A stretch of 63,988 nt of DNA, the filler included, from Licmophora abbreviata (Eukaryota), in NCBI GenBank assembly GCA_900291995.1. It is 11 parts of 11 records of this genome, joined end to end, with 100 filler letters (N's around TTAATTAATTAA, not from the genome) between each part and the next. Parts side by side here need not be neighbours in the genome. Positions count along the whole stretch, not along the records: positions 43,775 to 51,063 come from OLMU01005368.1; 10 more parts are not named here. One strand, given 5' to 3'. Made by a program: the position numbers and the translations under genes. This document shows positions 43,377 to 50,100 of this stretch, piece after piece (position 1 is the first letter of the stretch; every line of letters begins with the position of its first letter). The notes under the pieces were generated by a model. It was not told the origin of the DNA. It worked only from the letters and a program-made list of their open reading frames with translations, and made no database searches.

Positions 43377-43802
43377 CTAGGGACAACAAGACGCACTGAT
43401 GAGGTCGCATCGCTCAAAGACGATCGGCGCCGTCGGACAGAAAGGGGACTCTATTTTATCCTATAGTATTTCAAAGTATTGTATGCATACACAGCCCTTT
43501 TAAGTCATACCGTACAGGAGGAAGTATTGATAGCGCGGCCAGCAGATTCAAGTTCGATCAAGAAAATGGTTCTCTTGGGAGTGTCGCCGCGTTCGCATTC
43601 ACACGACAAAAGTTGAAAGTCCCTCGCGTGCTCTCTACCACCAGTAGTTGACGCTGATACTAGTGCTCAAGGATNNNNNNNNNNNNNNNNNNNNNNNNNN
43701 NNNNNNNNNNNNNNNNNNTTAATTAATTAANNNNNNNNNNNNNNNNNNNNNNNNNNNNNNNNNNNNNNNNNNNNCAAAAGTTGAAAGTCCCTCGCGTGCT
43801 CT

Positions 43803-46800
43803 CTACCACCAGTAGTTGACGCTGATACTAGTGCTCAAGGATCGCACATAGTGCCACATGCCGGACGGTAGGAACAGCGCATCGCCTGGTCCGAGCAAAG
43901 TCTCTTGGTATTTCGCTACCTTGGCCAAGGGATGCAAGTTGTAGTCTTCTCTTTCGCAGTCAACGGCACTCATATTGTTCTGAGCGGCGTACGAGGATCT
44001 CTTATGGTCCGTTCCGCCTCGAATCACGTACAGATTTTTCGATTCGGAGGCGCCGTAGACACGCACGTACTTGTATCCCAATATCTGGACCAACATATTG
44101 TCGTAACTATCGAAATGAAGAGGTGTGCGAGTCCCGCCGGTCCCAATCCAGACGTTGCGATGCAAACAGTGGCCATTGCAAAGCAGAGGAGACTCCAATA
44201 CGTCACTAGACAGGCCAGTAAACTGATCGAGTAGAGGGTGCTGTGCGAGGTAGGCCACGTGTGATGCTGCCAGCTGTGTCGCATCTTGCAACGACCAACG
44301 CGAGCGCCGACAGCTGGGGACCAAATACAACGAGACAAACGAGCGAAACGTCATGAGACATTCCTTCATCCCATCCTTTTCGGTGCTACCCATCATGGAA
44401 CCTAGCTCGATTGGAACTAGCCGGTGTCCGTATAGTCGGACGAGGTTGGTGAAGTCCCTGTAGCAGGAGAGAGTGAGGCAGGTCAGCGACGGGGAGTACT
44501 GAGTACCGACGACGTAGACATGATCGTTTAAACATAAAGAAAGACATGCCGATGGACTCACCGCCATTTGGATATAGCAGGCCATCCATCTGCCATATTT
44601 CTGATCACAACTGGCTCTCCTCGGTCGAAAAAGTTGGAGTTGAACTCATCGGTGTCCATCGCGGCATGGCATTCTGCGATGGGATACTCAATCGCACTTG
44701 ACCAGTCCCTGTTTTGAACACTTTCTGCGGTGGGATGCATCAATTCTGAGCCATTATCGATAACAGGTCGACAGGGACCACAGGAGGCCTGCCACGCACA
44801 ACGTTCGACGTAGTCGCAGAAGTCTCGAACTTTGTCGCGAGGCATTCCGAGAACAACGGCCTTGTCGATCATATTCTGTGCGAGAAGAAAGCTCCCAACG
44901 TGAGCGTAATACAAGGCACTGGTGAATGCACCGCAGCCATAAGCTTCCCGGTAAGAGGTGGTCTCCCACGAAGCATTCTTCTCTAGCTTTGCAAAGAGGT
45001 GCTTTTCCAGCAAGCAGCCAGCTTGCTTACAGAGGTCAAACCTCGAGCTTCGAGCGGCTTGAACGCATCTCTTTAGCATGTCGATGGTTTCGCAATCTTC
45101 CTGAATGTTATCTAGCGCACCCGATCCGATCTGTATGACAAACGCTCTCGCGATTGCCAGCATGCGAATCGGTATCGCGCCGACGGGATTTTCATTCGTG
45201 TCGACGTTCAAAGCCTGCAAGCGGCACTGGAGTGACGCCTCGGCGTCCATTTCACTACCGCCACTAGAAAGACTGTCCGAATCTTCGTCGTCCTCGCTTC
45301 CGCCGAATAGATCATCAATCTCGTCACGAACATTGTTATCGGAGGATTCATCAGCTGGAAAGTCACATTCCCTGATGCACTTTGAGCACGTGCATTCGAA
45401 ACCGTAGTTTCGCAACGCAGCCTGTCGCACCGCAAGAGGCTCATCCGACGCAATGTAACTAATACAGAGTTCCTCACTAGGCTCAATGTCCCGTAGCGCG
45501 ATACAGTGTATCGTCAATGGTGCTCCCCGGTCTACTATTGGTCGATACAACGCTACCACATTGGGATCGCATGAATGATTCATTTTGCATGTAGTTCGGT
45601 ACATAGCGGTGCCGTCCAGCGGAGGAAACAGACGATCCAAGTCGTCGCCTCTATCGTCATGCCCCAGCTCGTCCATATTAAGGCCACACAGAAAGGCTGT
45701 GATCTCCTCGTCAGTATAATCCGAGTCACCGTCGCAGATGCGAGCCTCCATACCAGTGTTCAACGTCGCGTCGGCCTCTTGCTCGCCAGTGTCTGATTCG
45801 TCACATCGACTGGCATCATCCTCGTCTTTCCCAACCATTCCTGCTCGTTCCAGACACTTAATAATATCATTTCGATGGCGATATCGCCAGTCCCTGTCAA
45901 ATATCTCTCGACTCAACGGATTTCTTTGTCGAATGCCAATGGCGTTCTGTTCAAACGACCCAATCACTCTTGCGAATGTCAGTTGCGTACAGAGTCGATC
46001 AATGAGACTCTGGTTGCCTTCAGACTGCACTATGAGTGCATGTTGCTTCCATGCCCGTCTCAGGTAGCTGGAAGATTCCTCACAGAGTCGTCGCAGGATG
46101 GTGTCCAACTGCTCGGCCTCGGTAATGCCAGCGGGGCTCGTCAACACGGGTGCAGTTGCCACGTCCCACCAAGGATTCGACAGAAAGTCCCAGTGGCGTT
46201 GCAGTAGCGAACTTTCGTCGAAGATCTTATCATTGTTTCTCTCATTAACACTAGTTCGCCTTGCATGCATCCTTTCCTCGACCAGTATCTGTGAAAGGAC
46301 ATCGGCAACCGCCAAGAAGATTTCATTGTTCTGGATGGCATGCATCTTGAACTGTAGCAGTGGATGCATCGAATCTGACTGCGATATCTCGCCAGTACAA
46401 AGTAACGAATGAGTCTGCCAGTGATCCTGTTCGCACTCCGGACTACAGTAGATCTCCCCACAGTCGTTTCGACAAGGGACACGCGTCGAGGAGCCACAAT
46501 TGCCACCTACATTCGCCTTGTCGTTTTCTTCCCAAAGGTGACTTCGGTTGATACTCCCAGCAGCCAGTTTGATACTCAGACTTCTGCTCCTGACAAACGC
46601 TCGACAGTAACGACATACAAGCGTGCCAGACTGCACATTGTCGAGCGACTGGAGAGATATAGCTGGGCGCTCAACGAAAATCACGGCATGTTTGCTGATG
46701 CGCTGTACGGCGACCAAATGCCGGCCTTTCTCATCGTCTATTCTGTGCTCAAACAGCTGAGGAGTAGAGGAGGGTGCGGAAGGACGAGAAACAAGGGTAG

Positions 46801-46855
46801 AGTGAGAAAATTGGTCTTGAATGGCCGAAACGCCCCCTTCGTCCGGCCTCATCAT
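43803..46855 (-). CDS. SET-MYND (SMYD-like) methyltransferase fused to a JmjC (JMJD5/KDM8-like) domain (exons 46855-44562, 44457-43803; ~982 aa)
   Basis: KGRHLVA, MYND finger CRYC..C..C..YCSPEC..H..HSLLC, MNHSCDPN, ELCISY, YGFECTCSKC; then PVVIRNMADGWPAISKWR|DF, YLAQHPL, TPLHFDSYDN, GYK, WHYVRSL, SISVNYWW. Confidence 0.9.
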
Positions 46856-47174
46856 GGTTCATCGGTGTTTCAAGTTTCACGCCCAGTTTCGAAAGAAGTT
46901 GTTGAGTGGCGCTCAAGCAACGTCTGCCATGCCTGATGCCCGGGACTGTCAGTCACACTTGTAACACAACGTCATCATACATGACTGAAGACGCGAGCTC
47001 CGGGTTTTGGTCATGCCAGACTTATTCGCCAGACAGAAGGCCGACAGTCATTCTTACACGAATAGTCAGAGACACAACAGGCCCATAGGACATTCTAGTC
47101 ATATAAAAAAGCAGTCACATTGCCACACTTTTTCCCGTGGCTCAAGAAAGCAGAAAAGAGACGAAAGACCAACC

Positions 47175-50100
47175 ATGACGGGGCAACGCCACCACATTCG
47201 GCGACCTCATCACACTAAGGGCTCTTTCGCGTCAAAGATCCAAGCTCGTAGGCTCTTAGAGATTGATGAACTGGTAAAGACAGACTTGGAGGCGCAGAGT
47301 ACGGCCGGAAGTCGACGTCATGGGCGGAGGGGCTCAGACGGCTTTTCCGTCCGAAGTCGACAAGCGAGTTCTTCGGGTAGCAGAGAAGGACAACAGTTAC
47401 TGTACGCCTCCAAGCATGCCAAAAGACGGAGACAGCGTGTGGCAAAGAAAACCAGCGCACGCCATGGACGTGTGAGATTGAATGACTCGTCGATTCAGCA
47501 ACGGAAGAGGTTTACTCTTGCAGCTTTTGGACTTGCCATGGTGCTATGTCTTGTTGACGACATGAGGTTTGCCAAGGTCCTCTACGGCTTTGGTCGCCGC
47601 TTGTGTGGCATAAACGAAGTAATAGACCGAGACAGCTTCACAGGATACTGGGAGAACAAGCAAGAGCCGGTCTATACCTACATTTCCAGTCCTCGTGAGT
47701 TGAACGAGCCCGACATCAGCAGTGAAGTGGCTGTGGCGTATGCTGTCACACTTCGAAGTTGCCCCGAAAATCTCAATGGCTGTCATCATGATCCCGGTCA
47801 TGCCTTCTACGAGGCCTCGGCGGTGCTACAGCACCACATTTGCGGGGCACATCAAGGGACGAGTGGCAGGTACGACGACTGCGTGTTTTATGCATTGGTT
47901 CATAGAGAGGCAATATACTGCATGACACCCAGCGGAGAGCGATATGACCGCGTCCAGATCCTTGAAGACCTTGGATACTTTGTAAAGATTTGGGGAGCGC
48001 CAATGGCACGCTCTGACTTTCAGTCGAATTTCCTGCAGACGTACATCGAAAACGATGCCGGGGTCAATGACTACACTGTTCTCAATGCCTGGCGTCTTCA
48101 GCTTCATGACATTATTGTGCTGGTCGACTTTTCGACGCTCATGCTCAACCGACCAGATGAGCTGTACGACGAGTTTGTAGCCAACACAACTCTTAAGGCC
48201 ATGTACACTCGAGATTACGCAAAGACTATATCGAATAGCGCCAATATGGGGATCAATCCTGGATTCTTTCTACTGAAGCCTTCCAACGACACCTTTTACG
48301 ATCTAAATGCGTTGATCACATCAAGTTCGTACGATCATATTAATGGCTGGGAAGGGAGCGGAGTGACAGGTTTTGACTGTGCAATGGGATCGAGAGGCGC
48401 CTTGACGTACACGTACGGTGTGCTGAACCAGTCGGAAGCTAGAGAGATCGATCGATGCTTGTACGGGAATGCCAACGAAGATCCCATTGACGAGGACTCT
48501 GGAAGCTGCCGAGACGGGACAGGTCTTGCCCCCTGCGAAGAGGACTGCCGCAACATGAATTCATCTAACATATTCGTGGCCAACCCGCGCATAGTATGCG
48601 GAGAGCCATGGGACTGCTACTATGACGACGAGTGGGACAATGTAACCAAACCGCTATGCGAGGAGTATCATCGGACATGGTACCAGCACCGATTGGATTT
48701 TGAGGATGCGTATATGATTCTACCATCCATACGAAATGGAACGTACCATGACGATATATTCCTTGGGTATTGCAGCGAGAAAGGTTGGCGAGGCTATGAA
48801 ATGATGCTTCCAGACAATGGAGAGTGTGTCGAAGGCGAAACCGTAACCTCAGAAACCACTCAGGAAGTGCAAGAACTAACTCAAGGATTGTCGATTACGG
48901 CTGGTCAGTGGAGTGGAAACGAAATGACTTGTATCAGTGGCTTTGTTAGCACTCCGAACTTCCCACTGGCGGAGCATCTGGTCAGATTTCAGGTAACAGT
49001 GAATGGGGTTTTGCAGGAAGGGACCAACGAGACAGCAGTGCAATTTAACTCCAGTGGCTTCTTTTGGAATGACGTTGTAGTCTCGGGACTCGATTCAGCT
49101 TTCGGGTCGAGCAACGTCGTAAACGTGACGGCAGAGATCGGTCAGGACACTTCTCCCGAGGGGCCGAACTATCATTACATTCTCAGTGTTGAGGTCGTCG
49201 TGTACGGGAGCGTGACCAACATGATGTACCCCAGCGCATCCCCAAGTACCGCGCCGAGTGGTAGTGTCGCTCCAAGCATTGCCCCCAGTGGATCCCCGAC
49301 GCATCTAACAAGTGCCACGCCGAGTCAAAGTCCAGCGCCCAGCGCTACTCCAAGCTCAGGGCCGAGTCAAAGCGCTGCGCCTAGCCTCGCCCCAAGTAAA
49401 AGCTCGGCTCCAACCACGTTCGGTATGTTAGCAATTTGCTTCTCTGCAACAATCGATCGATTGCAAGCTAACTTTTCTCCCGTTTTACTTCTTTCTTGGG
49501 TGATCTCAGTCTCGTATGGGCTTCAGCCGCAATGTAATAATTCCGACAGTGATGCCTTCGTAATGTGCCTTGACCTCAGATCTACAACTGGACAAGTAGA
49601 GGATTGGATGGATCACTTCGCAAGCGCGAGGCATTTCTACGAATCGATCATTGTTGGCGATCTAGAAGATACGCCAGTTGACGGGCTCGAGCATGCACCG
49701 GCTTGTGAAGGGGGCTACCCTGATACTGTCGATGATGTATATATTTGTGGAAGTGACGCAGTACTGGACGGGGCGGGCGGCGATGTCAACGTGCTCGGTA
49801 CTGCAGGCCCATACTGGCTAAGAAGAAGCGGAACTAACAATATCACCGGAGACAACTACTATACTGCCCTAACAGGGTCCATGACGTTTGATACATACGA
49901 TGTAGCTCAAATGATTTCCGAGGGATCGTTTCAAAGCGTTGTCCGACACGAAATGGTAAGTCAAAGATTGGCAGAAAGTTAAGCTTGCTTTTGTTGCTAT
50001 CAGGTTCTGCTCTCACGCTTTCGGTAAATTGATCTCGTCCTCCATCCTCGGCAGGGACACGTACTGGGTTTGGGTACCCTGTGGGGGTTGAACGGGCTCT

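Follow-up and report, generated by a model that had tools for sequence, protein, structure and literature searches.

A SMYD-like SET/MYND half joined to a JMJD5-type JmjC half in one polypeptide encoded by Licmophora abbreviata

The stretch of DNA analysed here (the window; 63,988 nucleotides of Licmophora abbreviata, assembly GCA_900291995.1) carries, between positions 43803 and 46855 on the minus strand, a gene whose product joins a SMYD-like SET/MYND half to a JmjC half of the JMJD5 (KDM8) type. The closest described protein is bd1647 of P. tricornutum, which Maumus et al. (2011, Curr Genomics; PMC3145265) classed both as SMYD and as 'SET+JmjC', with its target given as unknown. The two-domain transcript of bd1647 was reported there to be confirmed by PCR on cDNA (data not shown), and a dual antagonistic activity was proposed for SET+JmjC, an architecture marked 'not found' for both T. 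pseudonana and Ectocarpus. The same source mentions a JmjC-SET protein from Neurospora crassa. An earlier note on the window, drawn up from the sequence alone, had supposed that such an architecture might already stand in a survey of diatom chromatin, and the bd1647 entry bears this out.

Like bd1647, the window protein is a single polypeptide with an N-terminal SET domain of the SMYD class and a C-terminal JmjC domain. It differs in coming from another organism, and bd1647 was not matched to any homologue listed here, such that orthology between the two is inferred from architecture. PMC3145265 makes no statement on a JMJD5 type or an ARM domain, and the fusion is found here in many diatom genera. 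The Neurospora crassa protein, compared only through its mention in that paper, also carries both domains in one polypeptide, but in the reverse order. The window protein adds an orthologue to a family that was recorded in 2011 and is already annotated in public databases. Our additions are incremental: the fusion of a whole JMJD5 including its ARM domain, a single origin, a range from Leptocylindrus to raphid pennates, an intron history and a hydroxylase reading of the JmjC half.

Each half of the protein also has counterparts of its own. For the first half these are the human lysine methyltransferases SMYD1, SMYD2 and SMYD3. For the second, recombinant human JMJD5 was shown by Wilkins (2018) to hydroxylate arginine C-3 of RPS6 and RCCD1 (PMC5862942), and Fletcher et al. 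(2023; PMC10065073) describe the N-terminal domain of JMJD5 as a predicted tetratricopeptide repeat (TPR) domain that is implicated in RCCD1 binding.

Structure of the gene

The gene consists of two exons separated by one short intron.

46855-44562, minus strand: exon 1, beginning with the ATG at 46855; residues 1-764 and the first two bases of the Arg765 codon; homologues down to E 1.5e-181
44561-44458, minus strand: intron of 104 nt, phase 2, with GTGAGT donor and CTACAG acceptor (GT..AG)
44457-43803, minus strand: exon 2, residues 765c-982 (from the last base of the Arg765 codon), the remaining JmjC domain; stop codon TAG at 43805-43803; Cupin_8 E 2e-33; JMJD5 structures E 1e-28

Exon 1 closes with ...GWPAISKW followed by CG, and the first base of exon 2 (G, position 44457) completes the Arg765 codon ahead of DFTNLV. 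The spliced coding sequence of 2949 nt specifies 982 amino acids and a stop, and its frame lacks internal stops. The unspliced frame, by comparison, runs into an immediate stop after exon 1 (CGG TGA), as an in-frame TGA is formed at the donor. The coordinates that the earlier note had given for a single 104-nt intron within the N-terminal region of the JmjC domain proved exact. The best homologue of exon 1 has an E-value of 1.5e-181 and that of exon 2 one of 4.5e-70, values that place the similarity of both exons far beyond chance.

The Pfam Cupin_8 profile is split by the intron, with profile positions 3-31 matching residues 737-764 in exon 1 (E 0.025) and positions 76-246 matching within exon 2 (E 2e-33). 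The JmjC domain therefore spans the intron, and it begins in the SET-containing exon, as had been proposed. The locus is a single two-exon gene, single-copy within the window, that encodes one polypeptide with a SMYD-like SET half and a JMJD5-type JmjC half. A transcript retaining the intron (junction at 44558-44562) would encode a SET-MYND-ARM protein whose JmjC domain is cut off after 40 residues, and the same truncated product is predicted for relatives whose sequence ends in KWR.

We assembled 189 homologues, of which 88 were matched by exon 1 and 120 were the best among 249 exon 2 matches in longer proteins, with 19 common to the two groups. Both domains are present in 103 of the 189, with SET first in every case; 61 entries list SET only and 25 list JmjC only. 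Among the best 120 of the 249 exon 2 homologues, 94 are annotated with both PF13621 and PF00856, and all 45 of the fused homologues that were rescanned with Pfam carry SET together with Cupin_8. Public databases name such entries 'Cupin-like domain/SET domain' or 'lysine-specific demethylase 8', and the closest identities to the window protein are 45-49% for exon 1 and 60% for exon 2.

The two halves of the protein

A structure of exon 1 only was predicted with AlphaFold2 (AF2) from an alignment of 63 sequences, giving a mean predicted local distance difference test (pLDDT) score of 82 and a predicted template modelling (pTM) score of 0.80. When this model was searched with Foldseek, the best 39 PDB matches were all SMYD1-3 (E 5e-11 to 2e-7). 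VIA-align superimposed model residues 33-655 on residues 7-421 of SMYD2 (Z 16.9, root-mean-square deviation 3.6 Å over 281 residues), with a PEP-associated (plastid-polymerase-associated) SET protein (Z 13.1) and SETD6 (Z 12.0) as runners-up. By sequence, the nearest solved proteins are SMYD2 (E 8e-8, the best PDB match) and SMYD3 (E 1e-5); the best SMYD1-3 fold matches reach Z 15-17, at about 20% identity between structurally aligned residues. The N-terminal half of the protein is thereby predicted to adopt a SMYD-like SET/MYND fold with the bilobal SMYD architecture. Its parts are as follows.

46616-46765, minus strand: N-terminal SET strands, residues 31-80, with the GRHLVA motif; AF2 strands at 35-69, pLDDT about 90
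46397-46615, minus strand: atypical MYND zinc finger, residues 81-153
45644-46378, minus strand: helical SET insertion (residues 160-340) and disordered acidic loop (341-404); AF2 helices at 165-337 with high pLDDT
45368-45643, minus strand: core SET and post-SET, residues 405-496; Pfam SET at 414-467, E 6e-10
45569-45580, minus strand: NHSC motif, residues 426-429
45455-45457, minus strand: catalytic Tyr467, in the ELCISY motif

The features shared with SMYD1, SMYD2 and SMYD3 are the split SET domain, a presumed zinc finger inserted past the first strands, the NHSC motif, the catalytic tyrosine and a post-SET CxCxxC. In the window protein this last motif is CTCSKC at residues 488-493, with cysteines at 488, 490 and 493. 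Residues 31-80 align with SMYD2 from its residue 7 onwards and have a median identity of 46% with 72 fused homologues. The window protein differs from these SMYD proteins in its MYND finger, which has a 43-residue insert and CX3C spacing, in a much larger helical insertion and in the acidic loop. Median identity is 40% in the helical insertion and 29% in the acidic loop, where pLDDT falls below 50 at residues 348-374.

The MYND ligand pattern reads C81-x2-C84, the 43-residue insert, then C128-x3-C132-x4-C137-x3-C141-x7-H149-x3-C153. All eight presumed zinc ligands (C81, C84, C128, C132, C137, C141, H149 and C153) are identical in every one of the 75-83 fused homologues that cover them, and phmmer aligned residues 133-166 weakly to half of the SMYD2 MYND domain. 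In addition, all seven core SET motif residues, from NHSC, Tyr467 and the post-SET cysteines, are kept in 103 of 103 fused homologues.

A further difference from SMYD proteins lies in the helical lobe after the post-SET region. By sequence, this lobe matches the KDM8 ARM domain rather than a recognizable SMYD C-terminal domain, and a sequence search against solved structures gave no match of this helical region to the SMYD C-terminal domain. The parts that follow the post-SET region are listed here.

45245-45367, minus strand: acidic disordered linker, residues 497-537; pLDDT below 50 at 507-534; median identity 26%
44771-45238, minus strand: residues 540-695, helical ARM/TPR domain; its homologue is the N-terminal domain in stand-alone JMJD5/KDM8
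44562-44683, minus strand: first JmjC/cupin strands, residues 725-764, in exon 1; aligned with JMJD5 orthologues through the junction
43851-44117, minus strand: Fe(II)/2-oxoglutarate (2OG) site, with His879 (44115-44117), Asp881 (44109-44111), Lys894 and His967 (43851-43853)

When the fused family was set against 19 stand-alone JMJD5 proteins in hhalign, the query aligned from residue 561 to its end with JMJD5 positions 15-433 of 434. To exclude the JmjC part as the source of this full-length match, residues 536-700 alone were compared with the first 190 residues of the 19 stand-alone proteins, and again a match was obtained (Prob 99.3%, E 1.8e-20, 120 columns). Motifs common to the fused and stand-alone N-terminal domains are GSW..REAY and LDKA.ILG.P. 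The helical region between post-SET and JmjC is thus the JMJD5 N-terminal ARM/TPR domain, such that a complete JMJD5, overlooked in the earlier note, is fused to the SET half. In the non-diatom ochrophyte Ochromonadaceae sp., the SET module has a stand-alone relative of 466 amino acids that ends 17 residues beyond the post-SET region, which fits a plain end-to-end fusion of two complete genes.

Against solved structures, exon 2 matches JMJD5/KDM8 (E 1e-28) ahead of FIH (E 2e-11) and TYW5 (E 1e-5), and stand-alone JMJD5 proteins from Dictyostelium, Prymnesium and Trebouxia are 40-44% identical to it. These comparisons assign the JmjC half to the JMJD5/KDM8 type, with other JmjC-only hydroxylases more distant. 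In comparison with JMJD5/KDM8 from human (PDB 4gjy, 6f4p) and with protist, algal and plant orthologues, the window protein shares the ARM/TPR plus JmjC organization over the whole length, the Fe and 2OG ligands, the equivalent of Glu238 and a ..FWW/..YWW C-terminus. It differs in its placement behind a methyltransferase, in not keeping Tyr243 and in belonging to a JmjC clade apart from the 19 stand-alone proteins.

Active-site residues were compared by using reference positions from PMC5862942, with JMJD5 numbering taken as chain index + 181 and verified on H321, D323 and H400. His879, Asp881, Lys894 and His967 correspond to H321, D323, K336 and H400 of human JMJD5 and are kept in 98 of 99, 99 of 99, 96 of 98 and 96 of 97 fused homologues, respectively. 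Among the 2OG-binding residues, Tyr834 (Tyr272), Lys894 (Lys336) and Trp868 (Trp310) are kept, and Thr876 stands for Ser318, with the hydroxyl retained, as in protist orthologues. Equivalents of H321, D323, H400, K336, Y272, W310 and E238 are present in 96-100% of fused homologues. Those of Q275 and L329 are kept as well, and that of V402 is kept in the window protein and in 88 of 97 homologues. Glu782, equivalent to Glu238 of the arginine-binding pair, is found in all 101 fused homologues compared. The stretch before beta-I is four residues shorter than in human JMJD5.

The view of the earlier note that both catalytic sets are intact, namely NHSC (426-429), ELCISY with Tyr467 and CTCSKC (488-493) in one half and HFD (His879/Asp881), His967 and Lys894 in the other, is upheld by their conservation in about 100 orthologues.

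Fusion, intron and origin across homologues

The 61 SET-only entries might at first suggest true SET-only orthologues. This candidate explanation was discarded for 38 of them, which end exactly at the position where exon 1 ends in the window, 27 with the residues KWR. They are the expected products of intron-naive open reading frame (ORF) calling, wherein a G|GT(A/G)A donor gives a stop codon, and by inference they too contain the intron. When the window protein was aligned with 22 fused homologues, the junction was free of gaps against 20; in the remaining two, an in-frame insert starting with RYV sits at the junction and looks like a read-through GTATGT intron.

Environmental DNA provides loci on which this pattern can be read directly. 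Specifically, 42 loci from metagenome contigs were compared by tblastn, with loci counted as distinct at a 95% nucleotide identity cut-off. A single segment runs through the junction in 14 of these (12 distinct), several on contigs of 10-22 kb, and in such lineages a continuous ORF makes the fusion independent of splicing. Five other loci (four distinct) break at residue 765 with a change of frame and a gap of 71-91 nt with G|GTAAG or G|GTGAG at its start. Some lineages therefore have the phase-2 intron at Arg765 and others lack it, a pattern of intron gain or loss within the family. The 12 distinct uninterrupted loci, along with the 103 homologues that carry both domains, substantiate the earlier claim that the fusion does not stem from a gene-model artefact.

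All fused homologues with a named source are diatoms: Chaetoceros, Seminavis, Pseudo-nitzschia, Nitzschia, Fistulifera, Mayamaea, Epithemia, Cylindrotheca and Bacillariaceae metagenome-assembled genomes. A transcriptome-derived protein from Leptocylindrus danicus (a diatom of the Leptocylindrophyceae) also carries SET and Cupin_8. Five JmjC-only entries (P0092, P0124, P0137, P0152 and P0160; 50-56% JmjC identity) were considered as stand-alone diatom JMJD5 proteins and rejected. Their match to the fused family starts at the acidic linker and they nest within the fused clade, and they are consequently taken as N-terminally cut fragments.

The core SET (60%) and JmjC (54%) domains have the highest median identities of the protein among fused homologues, with linkers at 20-29%. 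A quick maximum-likelihood (ML) tree of the JmjC domain (LG+G4; 71 rows comprising the query, 45 of the 97 full-domain fused proteins, six fragments and 19 stand-alone proteins) placed all fused and fragment rows, the window protein among them, in one clade with an SH-like approximate likelihood ratio test (SH-aLRT) value of 100. A careful ML tree (LG+G4; 56 rows comprising the query, 35 of the 97 fused proteins, the environmental locus L028 and the 19 stand-alone proteins), the bootstrap of which had not fully settled, also recovered one fused clade (ultrafast bootstrap (UFboot) 99, SH-aLRT 88). A divergent lineage, L025-L029, groups with the fused clade as sister to the diatom fused rows and apart from all stand-alone proteins (90/97). 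These trees indicate that the fused JmjC domains share common descent and point to one origin of the fusion.

The divergent lineage comes from marine metagenome contigs, on which one ORF (for example, positions 83-3316 of L028) encodes about 1060 amino acids that are 27-43% identical to the window protein in SET and 37.5% in JmjC. Its catalytic motifs read NHSC, ELCISY, CDCIRC, HWD and WHHV, and its JmjC domain contains a poly-(Gly-Asp) insert. Two purpose-built hidden Markov models (HMMs) gave no match to the ARM domain in these proteins at E<=10.

A few other family members depart from the common pattern. The fused protein P0043 has JmjC substitutions His to Gln, His to Leu and Lys to Ile, and P0011 has Lys to Glu, with the SET motifs kept in both; these may be decaying or non-catalytic copies. 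In P0161 (Nitzschia inconspicua, 1196 amino acids), a GNAT domain (Acetyltransf_3, E 8e-15, residues 14-187) precedes SET and JmjC, which may reflect either a protein with three enzymes or the merging of separate genes in the model. A search of the ESM Atlas returned scores that were all below 0.8 and serve as leads only. At rank 10 (score 0.75) it listed a eukaryotic cluster of 161 proteins, most commonly from Chlorophyta, with SET in 66% and 2OG-FeII_Oxy_3 in 25%, which as a lead may represent another SET plus 2OG-oxygenase combination.

The surroundings of the gene contain one assembly feature that reaches its 3′ end.

43607-43842, no strand: linker and flanks, with the linker at 43675-43774 (44 N + TTAATTAATTAA + 44 N) and an exact 68-nt duplicate, 43607-43674 = 43775-43842

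This 100-nt linker begins 28 nt beyond the stop codon, and the 68-nt duplicate covers the last 13 codons of the gene and its stop. The two copies agree, so the C-terminus is unaffected by the linker. The identical flanks mark two overlapping contigs that were joined by the linker and not merged. Ten such identical 100-nt linkers occur in the window, between 1121 and 51163. A divergently oriented neighbour at 46989-49982 (plus strand) is an open frame of 997 codons with a likely ATG near 47176, about 320 nt from the ATG of the fusion gene. It includes a long repetitive stretch rich in Ser, Pro and Ala and looks like a secreted or cell-surface protein.

Possible activities of the fusion

We favour, with somewhat more confidence than doubt, a reading in which a SMYD-like methyltransferase and a JMJD5-like hydroxylase act on one substrate or complex. 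In this reading, two once-separate genes were joined, a SMYD-like SET/MYND (about residues 30-496) and, after an acidic linker, a complete JMJD5 (ARM about 540-695, JmjC about 725-982). The SET half would transfer methyl groups from S-adenosylmethionine (SAM) to lysine. The JmjC half would hydroxylate a residue, as human JMJD5 does with arginine C-3 as the precedent, rather than remove methyl groups from lysine. Both halves are taken as catalytically active because both centres are strongly constrained: the core SET and JmjC domains are the best conserved parts, and JmjC ligands are lost in only two homologues. The two activities would then be brought onto one histone or one ribosomal or nuclear protein, or onto one complex.

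The structural model suggests how such a joint might be built, as the JMJD5 ARM/TPR domain would be placed where, in SMYD proteins, the C-terminal helical lobe flanks the SET substrate cleft. A more speculative proposal, which we hold to be rather improbable, is that in diatoms the ARM/TPR domain has assumed the function of the SMYD C-terminal lobe, that a composite SET/ARM cleft holds a basic histone or ribosomal tail, and that the same substrate is lysine-methylated and also hydroxylated nearby or processed in a methyl-dependent manner. If this were true, the protein would be an oxygen- and metabolite-gated dual-mark writer, so far found only in diatoms among source-named homologues.

Several observations weigh against the favoured combination of methyltransferase and hydroxylase. 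The first publication on JMJD5 presented it as an H3K36me2 demethylase, and it has been described as a histone-tail peptidase too (PMC10065073, PMC10424186, molecule names in the PDB); a demethylase or clipping role may still apply. The position of JMJD5 Tyr243 is Met787 in the window protein and is variable in the family (M 17, L 17, S 5, Q 4 and K 2 of 53 aligned, in a gappy loop alignment). Because the Tyr243Ala variant of human JMJD5 is reported to be inactive (PMC5862942) and this tyrosine is not kept, the substrate pocket differs and arginine may not be the target. The MYND finger matches residues 119-153 below threshold with both Pfam zf-MYND (16.3 bits, cut-off 22.7) and MYND_ZMYND11 (19.5 bits), and zf-MYND is found at E<=0.05 in 5 of the 45 rescanned fused homologues. 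Pfam ARM_KDM8_N (PF24472) is likewise below threshold, with matches at E<=0.05 in 7 of 45 fused homologues and none on the window protein at E<=0.1; the rescanned stand-alone JMJD5 orthologues of other eukaryotes do carry it. The placement of the ARM domain at the position of the SMYD lobe relies on the end residues of one predicted-model alignment (655 versus SMYD2 421). No sequencing run recorded as RNA carried the stretch in a search of runs for a transcript of the gene; one run of unspecified kind shared 12% of words, with two short contigs that cover 44807-45227 only and do not reach the intron. Finally, a search of the full-text literature, a coverage that leaves out most subscription journals, found no biochemical or functional study of any family member, as the earlier note had surmised, and mention of the fusion in PMC3145265 only.

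The best-surviving alternative, although in our estimate unlikely, is that the protein writes and erases histone lysine methylation, with the SMYD half methylating a histone lysine and the KDM8 half removing methyl groups from that lysine or from a different one (for example, H3K36me2). Maumus et al. (PMC3145265) share this view, and the earlier note called the protein a methyl writer and eraser. The confirmed architecture and intact catalytic sets are compatible with it, as are a title, cited in PMC10065073, that presents JMJD5 as an H3K36me2 demethylase, the name 'lysine-specific demethylase 8' given to homologues by several database sources and the absence of the arginine-pocket tyrosine. 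However, recombinant human JMJD5, both full-length and as residues 183-416, did not demethylate H3K4/9/27/36 me1-3 peptides in vitro (PMC5862942). The same source describes JMJD5 as lacking both the loop by which JmjC demethylases bind methyl-lysine and their chromatin-binding domains, and alignment to JMJD5 reveals no longer loop at the corresponding position of the window protein. A Pfam scan of the window protein also found no reader domain (PHD, Tudor or chromo). 'Eraser' is therefore probably the wrong label for the JmjC half, and a writer plus a second writer is more probable than a writer plus an eraser. The body of the earlier note, which spoke of methylation coupled with demethylation or hydroxylation of one substrate, was better worded than its title in this respect.

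It is less likely still that only one half is catalytic in vivo and that the other serves as a targeting, scaffolding or regulatory module, such as a SET/MYND part that docks JMJD5 onto a partner. MYND fingers serve in interactions between proteins, and JmjC residues are lost in 2 of the 103 fused homologues (both His and Lys in P0043, Lys in P0011). Yet all 103 fused homologues share identical SAM-pocket and catalytic SET residues, the Fe and 2OG ligands are kept in 96-99 of 97-99, and the high conservation of core SET (60%) and JmjC (54%) would be unneeded in a pure scaffold.

An erroneous merger of neighbouring SET and JmjC genes, to which the stop directly after exon 1, the 61 of 189 SET-only entries and the lack of an RNA-recorded run might point, is close to refuted, as the JmjC domain begins about 40 residues before exon 1 ends and exon 2 alone would be an incomplete domain, 38 of those 61 entries stop at the intron site, 12 distinct loci read through the junction in one ORF, several on 10-22 kb contigs, the Leptocylindrus transcriptome-derived protein has both domains and cDNA PCR is reported for P. 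tricornutum (PMC3145265).

It is rare for a SAM-dependent methyltransferase and an oxygenase that depends on O2 and 2OG to be covalently joined in a conserved protein. The fusion of a SMYD-like half with a JMJD5-type half hints that both modifications are made on one target. Because it is not settled which substrates JMJD5 acts on physiologically in animals, a lineage with a permanent tie between JMJD5 and a lysine methyltransferase could indicate a shared substrate. The fusion also hints that the state of oxygen, iron or the tricarboxylic acid (TCA) cycle could gate a methylation pathway in major marine primary producers.

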